NCBI GenBank assembly: GCA_038223355.1
Contig: JBBRHB010000001.1
Span: 1-30,625, forward strand
Length of the DNA: 30,625 bases
Direction of reading: 5' to 3'
DNA from: Chloroflexales bacterium
GTDB taxonomy: Bacteria > Chloroflexota > Chloroflexia > Chloroflexales > Kallotenuaceae
This document shows positions 13,023-13,460 of this stretch, piece after piece. Position 1 is the stretch's first letter. Every line of letters begins with the position of its first letter. A model generated the notes under the pieces. The model was not told the origin of the DNA, did no database searches, and was given only the letters and a program-made list of their open reading frames with translations. The position numbers and the translations under genes were made by a program.

Positions 13023-13460
13023 AGAATTCTCCTGTATCCACGGCCTGCCCTATAGCAACCGCCGGACCAATGGCTTTAACTTTCCACATCTTATTCATTT
13101 CCTTCTTTATTAAGGTTAGTAATAGTAGTAGGGAATGTGGATACGTTGGTAACTACGTTCTAGCTGATAGCAGAGATGTATATGGCCCGTCCTACTTTGG
13201 GGATAGCCATCCCCACTATCCCCATCCGTGCTTATTCGTTGAAAATAACGACCGACATACCCCCAACTATCGGTCACGTATCCCCAAGCTACGTACCACA
13301 ACCCTCCGTGGTTATCCCCATAACGTGGGGTTTATCCACAACAGCATCGTGGTTATCCACATGTTGCCCGATATTTGTTGACTGTATTTGACAAAACGCT
13401 TAAATAAATAGCAGCCACCAGCTCTCCTGATAGCCGCTATGCTTCAAGTTATCCGTCAGG
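13023..13460. other. Putative chromosomal replication origin (oriC)
   Basis: AT-rich tract 13091-13115 and DnaA-trio array TAG TAA TAG TAG TAG (13117-13131), then a 4-bp spacer and box TGTGGATAC (13136-13144). Perfect TTATCCACA boxes at 13332-13340 and 13353-13361, plus several near-consensus boxes between 13198 and 13320. Confidence 0.78.

Follow-up and report, generated by a model that had tools for sequence, protein, structure and literature searches.

The locus raises the question of where replication of the chromosome starts in this Chloroflexia bacterium, and whether its origin may lie away from dnaA. To our knowledge, every bacterium has a chromosomal origin, and other phyla provide known examples of origins that are not coupled to dnaA. 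The window, i.e., the whole stretch of DNA that was analyzed, is the entire contig C1, the longest (30.6 kb) of the 826 contigs of a MAG of 5.27 Mb with G+C content of 58%. Neither dnaA nor dnaN is coded on it, as the preliminary description had said: contig C96 carries the genome's only canonical dnaA (1482-2903; TIGR00362, 534 bits), and contig C311 carries dnaN. The studied intergenic gap is 439 bp long and has a gene for a methyltransferase-like protein on one side and a gene for a BFN nuclease on the other (Table 1). With a probability of about 0.8, this gap is the chromosomal oriC of the bacterium, working by the DnaA basal unwinding system (BUS). The reading is carried by the sequence elements of the gap, which are unique in the genome and conserved throughout the order Chloroflexales, and by the position of the orthologous locus at a switch of strand composition in relatives.

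Table 1. Features of the proposed origin and its surroundings (positions in the window), followed by skew minima around the orthologous locus in four relatives (positions in the respective genome or contig).
Feature	Position	Strand	Basis or remark
ffs (small SRP RNA)	12158..12257	-	RF00169, 66.6 bits
Class I methyltransferase-like gene, start 60 bp from the AT-rich tract	12333..13022	-	neighbour kept within the family only
Intergenic region, proposed oriC	13023..13461	.	9 DnaA-box-like sites (at most 2 mismatches); orthologous locus at GC-skew switch in relatives
Weak DnaA box GTATCCACG, 2 mismatches, 12 nt 5' of the methyltransferase-like start codon	13034..13042	+	box scan
AT-rich DNA, candidate unwinding element	13075..13116	.	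duplex stability
Box-like site CTTTCCACA, 2 mismatches, beyond the AT-rich tract and facing it	13080..13088	+	box scan, family alignment
Five DnaA-trios, 5'-TAG TAA TAG TAG TAG-3' = 3'-GAT GAT GAT AAT GAT-5'	13117..13131	+	
4-bp spacer GGAA between trios and box	13132..13135	.	
Trio-proximal DnaA box GTATCCACA, 1 mismatch	13136..13144	-	box scan
Weaker box TTACCAACG abutting the trio-proximal box	13144..13152	-	possible 9-mer + 8-mer tandem arrangement, read from the sequences
Three intermediate weak TATCCCCA-type boxes (within 13198..13286)	13198, 13216, 13278	-, +, +	box scan
Triple direct DnaA-box array TTATCCCCA, TTATCCACA, TTATCCACA	13312..13361	+	starts 20 and 21 bp apart
Terminator-like hairpin at the end of the BFN transcript	13408..13440	-	
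BFN-domain (bifunctional nuclease) gene, conserved neighbour of the proposed origin	13462..14061	-	PF02577, E = 2.5e-39
Intein-bearing gyrA	16964-20848	-	ORF of 1,294 aa
G005, 1.95-Mb contig	cumulative minimum 161,707; best breakpoint 163 kb		boxes 161,019-161,314; dnaA 837 kb, no change of skew
G006, 2.38-Mb contig	local minimum 335,286; absolute minimum of a 240-kb span 289,767		boxes 335,714; dnaA 1.605 Mb, no change of skew
G003, 160-kb span	minimum 402.7 kb, 11 kb from boxes		boxes 413.9 kb; dnaA 1.41 Mb, outside the span
G022 (closed), -100 to +300 kb	cumulative minimum 135,824		boxes 135,484-135,682; dnaA 0.4 kb

Read on the minus strand, the gap carries GTATCCACA (13144 to 13136), TTCC, CTACTACTATTACTA (CTA CTA CTA TTA CTA, 13131 to 13117), and then the AT-rich tract, which is the string of elements described from the sequence at the outset. 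In the published BUS, a DnaA box or a tandem pair of boxes is followed by a short spacer (about 4 bp), then by trios (3'-GAT-5') and finally by AT-rich DNA (PMC8287927). Both the order of the elements and the strand agree with it, and on this ground the initial interpretation as a DnaA-trio unwinding module is supported. When compared with the BUS criteria, GTATCCACA, with one mismatch, lies within the allowed 16 bp upstream of the trios, from which it is separated by the 4-bp spacer; there are five consecutive trios of the form 3'-[G/A]A[T/A]-5' opposite the 5'-TTATCCACA-3' strand, where at least three are asked for; and the AT-rich region is distal to the trios. The spacer in the survey is a "GC-rich region (4 bp on average)", and a tandem second box is present in 57% of the surveyed BUS origins and hence is not obligatory (PMC8287927). 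The survey table shows the bottom strand in 3' to 5' direction, as AATAGGTGT / ATAGGTGT / TCGG / GATGAT... (PMC8287927); this convention was confirmed in G022, where positions 112-139 are exactly complementary to the entry for Roseiflexus sp. RS-1. Written in the same way, the window reads CATAGGTGT / AAGG / GAT GAT GAT AAT GAT, and the orientation of its module is therefore canonical. The boxes of the window may follow the 9+8 layout of the survey table, but the stronger box of the pair is trio-proximal in the window and usually upstream in the survey (PMC8287927). The abutting 9-mer TTACCAACG has three mismatches in the window and one or two in G002, G005, and G012.

The trio run is the sole run of at least five YTW triplets with at least three CTA on either strand of the 5.27-Mb assembly. 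All 9,550 box-like sites of the assembly were scored for trios within 16 bp downstream, and the module in the gap ranked first, with five trios, four of them CTA; the runners-up have four trios with at most one CTA, and poorer boxes in two of three cases. Whether 40, 60, or 80 bp are considered, the least stable duplex of the window is the segment 13075-13135, which deviates from the mean by about 4 SD; among 5.2 million 60-bp windows of the assembly, it is approximately the 19th least stable. Single-strand folding of 13060-13160 is unremarkable (z-score -1.47).

As had been noted, DnaA boxes accompany the module, including perfect ones at 13332 and 13353 (+) with 20-21-bp spacing from 13312 (+), which has one mismatch; the box scan returned all of them. 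Perfect DnaA boxes number just 18 in the whole assembly. These figures bear on whether box-like and AT-rich sequences might simply co-occur by chance in a promoter-containing intergenic region, an explanation to which almost no weight can be given. Intergenic regions are generally AT-rich, and seven boxes in the whole 30-kb window, vs. 4.25 expected, are not significant alone. The box signal resides in clustering and not in the window-wide count: nine boxes with at most two mismatches are present in the gap, vs. 0.8 expected per 439 bp, and one of 22,733 genome-wide tiles reaches this number. The pattern of boxes, trios, and clustering is beyond chance expectation, and chance is further opposed by the uniqueness of the trio run, the order-wide conservation of position, the coincidence with skew switches, and the module having been kept, not lost, in close relatives. 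Two motifs conserved in the family are located just inside the proposed origin, namely GTTGATAACTACG (13145-13160, overlapping the weak second box) and, about 20 bp further, CAGAGATGTA (13177-13186).

Like oriC (incC) of Bacillus subtilis with its tandem DnaA-box pair, the window has a DnaA box and a possible second box abutting it, then a short spacer (about 4 bp), trios of the 3'-GAT-5' type on the strand complementary to 5'-TTATCCACA-3', and an AT-rich tract (Richardson 2016/2019; Pelliciari 2021, PMC8287927). Unlike the Bacillus origin, the candidate does not lie between dnaA and dnaN. It also differs from the Bacillus model in an extra box-like site that faces the AT-rich tract from the opposite side, and in its main high-affinity array, which is 170-215 bp off and has 20-21-bp phasing. 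The trio string CACCTACTACTATTACTACTATGA reported next to a DUE in oriC2 of Clostridioides difficile is almost the same as that of the window and includes its CTACTACTATTACTA run, but the origin of that species is bipartite around dnaA, whereas the window site is unlinked to dnaA (PMC7561715).

The genes around the gap were identified as described initially (a methyltransferase-like gene, ffs, and BFN at its flanks, with gyrA nearby), both by coordinates and by profile matches. The closest named relatives of the BFN protein are from Chloroflexia and Roseiflexaceae. Inside the gap, no Rfam RNA family was matched and a sigma-70 scan gave no promoter. Elsewhere in the window, a T-box leader was found at 65-338 (RF00230, 116 bits), ahead of the first gene of a trp-related block, and the gyrA ORF codes for 1,294 aa, with an intein splicing domain (PF14890) inside the N-terminal topoisomerase domain.

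None of the statements on conservation depends on the unpublished genomes G042 or G062. Three tandem boxes at 20-21-bp spacing are located just past the BFN stop codon in all 20 relatives fetched, which represent four families of the order, and the same array is present at the six closest BFN loci from a public genome collection, i.e., at 26 of 26 Chloroflexales loci fetched, where the box-spacer-trio module accompanies it. No box cluster or unwinding module was found at 74 other BFN loci (Anaerolineae and other phyla). In a class-wide sample, BFN and tandem boxes could both be located in 16 genomes of the same order and adjoin each other in every one of these; for the other orders of the class, all cases that allowed a check have the box pairs on a different contig or at least tens of kb from BFN. 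The BFN locus holds the genome's sole two perfect boxes at array spacing in four of five relatives searched.

In the relatives, the module has the form of AT-rich DNA, one to five TAG-like trios, a 4-bp and usually G/C-rich spacer, and TGTGGATA with an abutting box. The spacer is 4 bp long at the same position in nearly all of them. In the family alignment, TGTGGAT of the trio-proximal box is invariant, and a box-like site at the position of 13080..13088 is kept across most of the family. About half of the relatives retain the box-proximal TAG TAG; the remainder have one TAG or none. The strict trio pattern was not matched in relatives, where direct reading showed shorter or degenerate trio runs, and the run in the window is the longest seen among them. 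The module is about 90% identical in G001 and recognisable in G002. As to the conservation of the trio block between BFN and methyltransferase orthologues, suggested earlier as a check, the box-spacer-trio form is next to BFN order-wide, the trio runs of relatives are shorter or degenerate, and the methyltransferase neighbour is restricted to the family.

Within the family, the block of PspC, ffs, and methyltransferase, the proposed origin, and BFN is syntenic, while other families keep the BFN adjacency only, BFN being the sole neighbour of the proposed origin kept across the whole order. Relatives differ by rearrangements in the sequence beyond about 11.6-16.9 kb. Approximately one half of the family members have the core block, from PspC and ffs through the methyltransferase-like gene and the proposed origin to BFN, inverted with respect to the genes that flank it, and in G002 the DHODH-like gene is 144 kb away.

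A minimum of cumulative GC skew was expected at the site in the preliminary description. Such a minimum was seen at the orthologous locus in G005, locally in G006 and G022, and within 11 kb of the locus in G003; it was not seen in the short flanks of the window or in G002. The cumulative minimum is at most 0.5 kb from the boxes in G005 and G022, and a local minimum is at the locus in G006 (Table 1). In G005, sampled GC skew is negative at 0-120 kb, positive in 32 of 35 samples between 150 kb and 1.87 Mb, and negative from 1.9 Mb. Its mean is -0.017 left of the locus and +0.040 right of it (Mann-Whitney p = 5e-7), and AT skew flips at the locus in the opposite sense to GC skew. In G006, skew is negative to about 290 kb and, after a 35-kb positive block, again negative to 335 kb, and then positive in all samples to 2.37 Mb; the absolute minimum is 46 kb from the boxes because of this block of opposite skew. 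The block itself (G006:C2, about 290-325 kb) lies inside the negative arm just left of the origin and may be inverted or acquired. Sampled genome-wide, skew in G022 is irregular; in a published skew survey, Roseiflexus sp. RS-1 was placed in trend group V, and most Chloroflexi in trend IV.

The distance between the BFN locus and dnaA is 135 kb (G022), 676 kb (G005), 1.0 Mb (G003), or 1.27 Mb (G006), i.e., 0.14-1.3 Mb in four relatives, in accordance with the remoteness from dnaA that had been claimed. In the relatives with long contigs, no skew switch coincides with the dnaA region, and contig C96 of the studied genome has uniformly positive skew with no switch. The claim of a dnaA-uncoupled origin is supported by the order-wide conservation of the module and by the skew switch at the orthologous locus, not at dnaA, in relatives with long contigs. 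A position remote from dnaA appears to be common to the whole order.

A competing locus is the cluster upstream of dnaA (about C96:3170-3400), with five boxes in both orientations, two of them perfect. These boxes are accompanied by at most two trios and no AT-rich unwinding element, and the dnaA contig is absent from the 40 least stable regions listed. The dnaA of G022 is likewise preceded by perfect boxes, an inverted pair at 21 and 34. Clusters of DnaA boxes are well known from places other than origins, and the gap might be such a cluster, which titrates or recharges DnaA (as datA, DARS, and DnaA-box clusters of B. subtilis do) or regulates the methyltransferase-like gene, while replication starts elsewhere. 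The existence of the second cluster fits this explanation, as do the missing skew switch in the window flanks and in G002 and the one weak box in the 5' leader of the methyltransferase-like gene. It is nevertheless unlikely: a trio run with an AT-rich element is not expected in such a cluster, and the gap has the best combination of this kind in the genome; the skew switch is at the BFN locus and not at dnaA in G005, G006, and G022; and the dnaA region has no comparably unstable tract, with skew uniformly positive on both sides. A bipartite origin that pairs the gap with the dnaA-upstream cluster was considered as well and rejected, the two loci being 0.14-1.3 Mb apart in relatives.

An origin away from dnaA is known from Escherichia coli, where oriC has gidA and mioC as neighbours and is separated from dnaA by about 42 kb, and the dnaA promoter retains its own DnaA boxes for autoregulation. 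Both the E. coli oriC and the window site are uncoupled from dnaA, which keeps separate boxes, and by this analogy the dnaA-upstream boxes are most simply explained as autoregulatory. The DUE of E. coli uses 13-mers, and its origin has boxes R1-R4, I and tau sites, and IHF; this box layout differs from that of the window, and the separation of dnaA and the locus in relatives is as much as 1.3 Mb.

Published calls for the order are at dnaA. In the DoriC and BUS-survey predictions, candidates for Roseiflexus sp. RS-1, R. castenholzii, and Chloroflexus aggregans are at the dnaA end, with three trios each and a score of 4, while scores elsewhere in the table are far higher, up to 27 for an eleven-trio origin (PMC8287927). 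The genome paper on Chloroflexus aurantiacus places oriC at twelve o'clock of the map, and dnaA is Caur_0001. Compared with the RS-1 survey entry, G022 has the local skew minimum and a stronger module 135 kb off, at the BFN locus. Among the papers searched, none that places a Chloroflexales origin at the BFN locus was found, nor was any experimentally mapped Chloroflexota origin.

The skew of the window itself is not informative, or is mildly contrary to an origin: it is +0.032 left and +0.041 right of the gap, without a switch and with no more than a shallow dip over 10-20 kb. In G002, a member of the same genus, the 223-kb contig C2 lacks a systematic skew both left and right of the locus. 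GC skew of the trp block (453-4266) is +0.055 in the window vs. about -0.015 in its orthologues in G003 and G006, which are likewise left of, and near, the origin locus. This suggests that the block was for a long time in the opposite replication orientation and that a rearrangement beside the origin is recent. The shuffled flanks, the inverted core block, and 10-kb stretches of wrong sign near the origin of G005 mean that the discordance may reflect either recent rearrangement or noise.

The same observations could indicate that the gap is an ancestral origin of the order that was displaced, or recently moved by rearrangement, in this genus, with the active origin or its context different from that of relatives. 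Positive skew on both flanks, a trp block opposite in sign to its orthologues, the absence of a switch in G002 of the same genus, and the scrambled flanking synteny with a core block inverted between relatives would be in line with such a history, which is nonetheless judged very unlikely. The module is intact, with the best trio run of the family in the window; its identity with G001 and its recognisable form in G002 indicate continuing selection on it and argue against displacement. No other site of the assembly has comparable features, and even in G005 there is much noise in skew at the scale of 10-13 kb.

In the preferred reading, that the gap is an active oriC, initiation would proceed from the array to the AT-rich tract, as predicted from the arrangement of the elements; binding of DnaA, unwinding, and firing of the origin in this organism are all presumed on the same basis. 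DnaA coded on contig C96 would bind the three high-affinity boxes at 13312-13361, two helical turns apart, and would also fill the weaker TATCCCCA-type boxes between the array and the unwinding module, as well as the tandem box pair at 13136-13152. From this pair, an oligomer of ATP-DnaA would grow past the 4-bp spacer and along the + strand, where it would engage the five 3'-GAT-5' trios (13117-13131). Stretching of that strand would then melt the AT-rich tract (13075-13116) and provide an entry site for the helicase.

A broader proposal is possible, though doubtful. According to it, all Chloroflexales have their origin where the BFN gene ends (3'), which can be as far as 1.3 Mb away from dnaA, the published dnaA-adjacent calls in Roseiflexus and Chloroflexus are wrong, and the origin might even be a distinct variant, with a DUE bracketed by inward-facing boxes, a distant triple array with 21-bp phasing, and functional coupling to BFN. 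If the origin is at the BFN locus throughout the order, the published dnaA-adjacent assignments are wrong. The origin kind itself is ordinary, being of the known DnaA-trio type, and the value of the locus is that of a well-supported, testable origin in a poorly studied order. It would correct the dnaA-adjacent survey predictions for three Chloroflexales genomes, give a specific candidate site for tests in cultured relatives, and extend the evidence for the basal unwinding system as ancestral across bacteria. It would also be a warning that, for this order, origin calls anchored at dnaA may miss by hundreds of kilobases, with consequences for analyses that depend on such calls, e.g., the assignment of replichores or growth rates estimated from coverage. 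The box-like site beyond the AT-rich tract, the distant array with 21-bp phasing, and the invariant BFN neighbour may be of interest to specialists.

Further runs of boxes were observed outside the gap. A second dense run of DnaA-box-like repeats with spacing of about 10-11 bp is present at 15600-15680 of the window, including CTATCCCAC, TTTCCCACA, TTATCCCCC, TTGTCCACA, TGTGGATAT, and GGGGATAA, and reaches from the last part of ORF 15143-15634 into the beginning of the DHODH-like gene. G001, of the same genus, has matching boxes, and none of the more distant relatives looked at has them. Members of the genus g11 have, at a distance of about 7 kb from the array linked to BFN, another conserved box pair, in which the boxes are perfect (TTATCCACAATTCCACCAGTTATCCACA) in nearly all cases (G026:C15:7661, G106:C16:70102, G099:C47:84868, G085:C50:69519, and G092:C20:11676).
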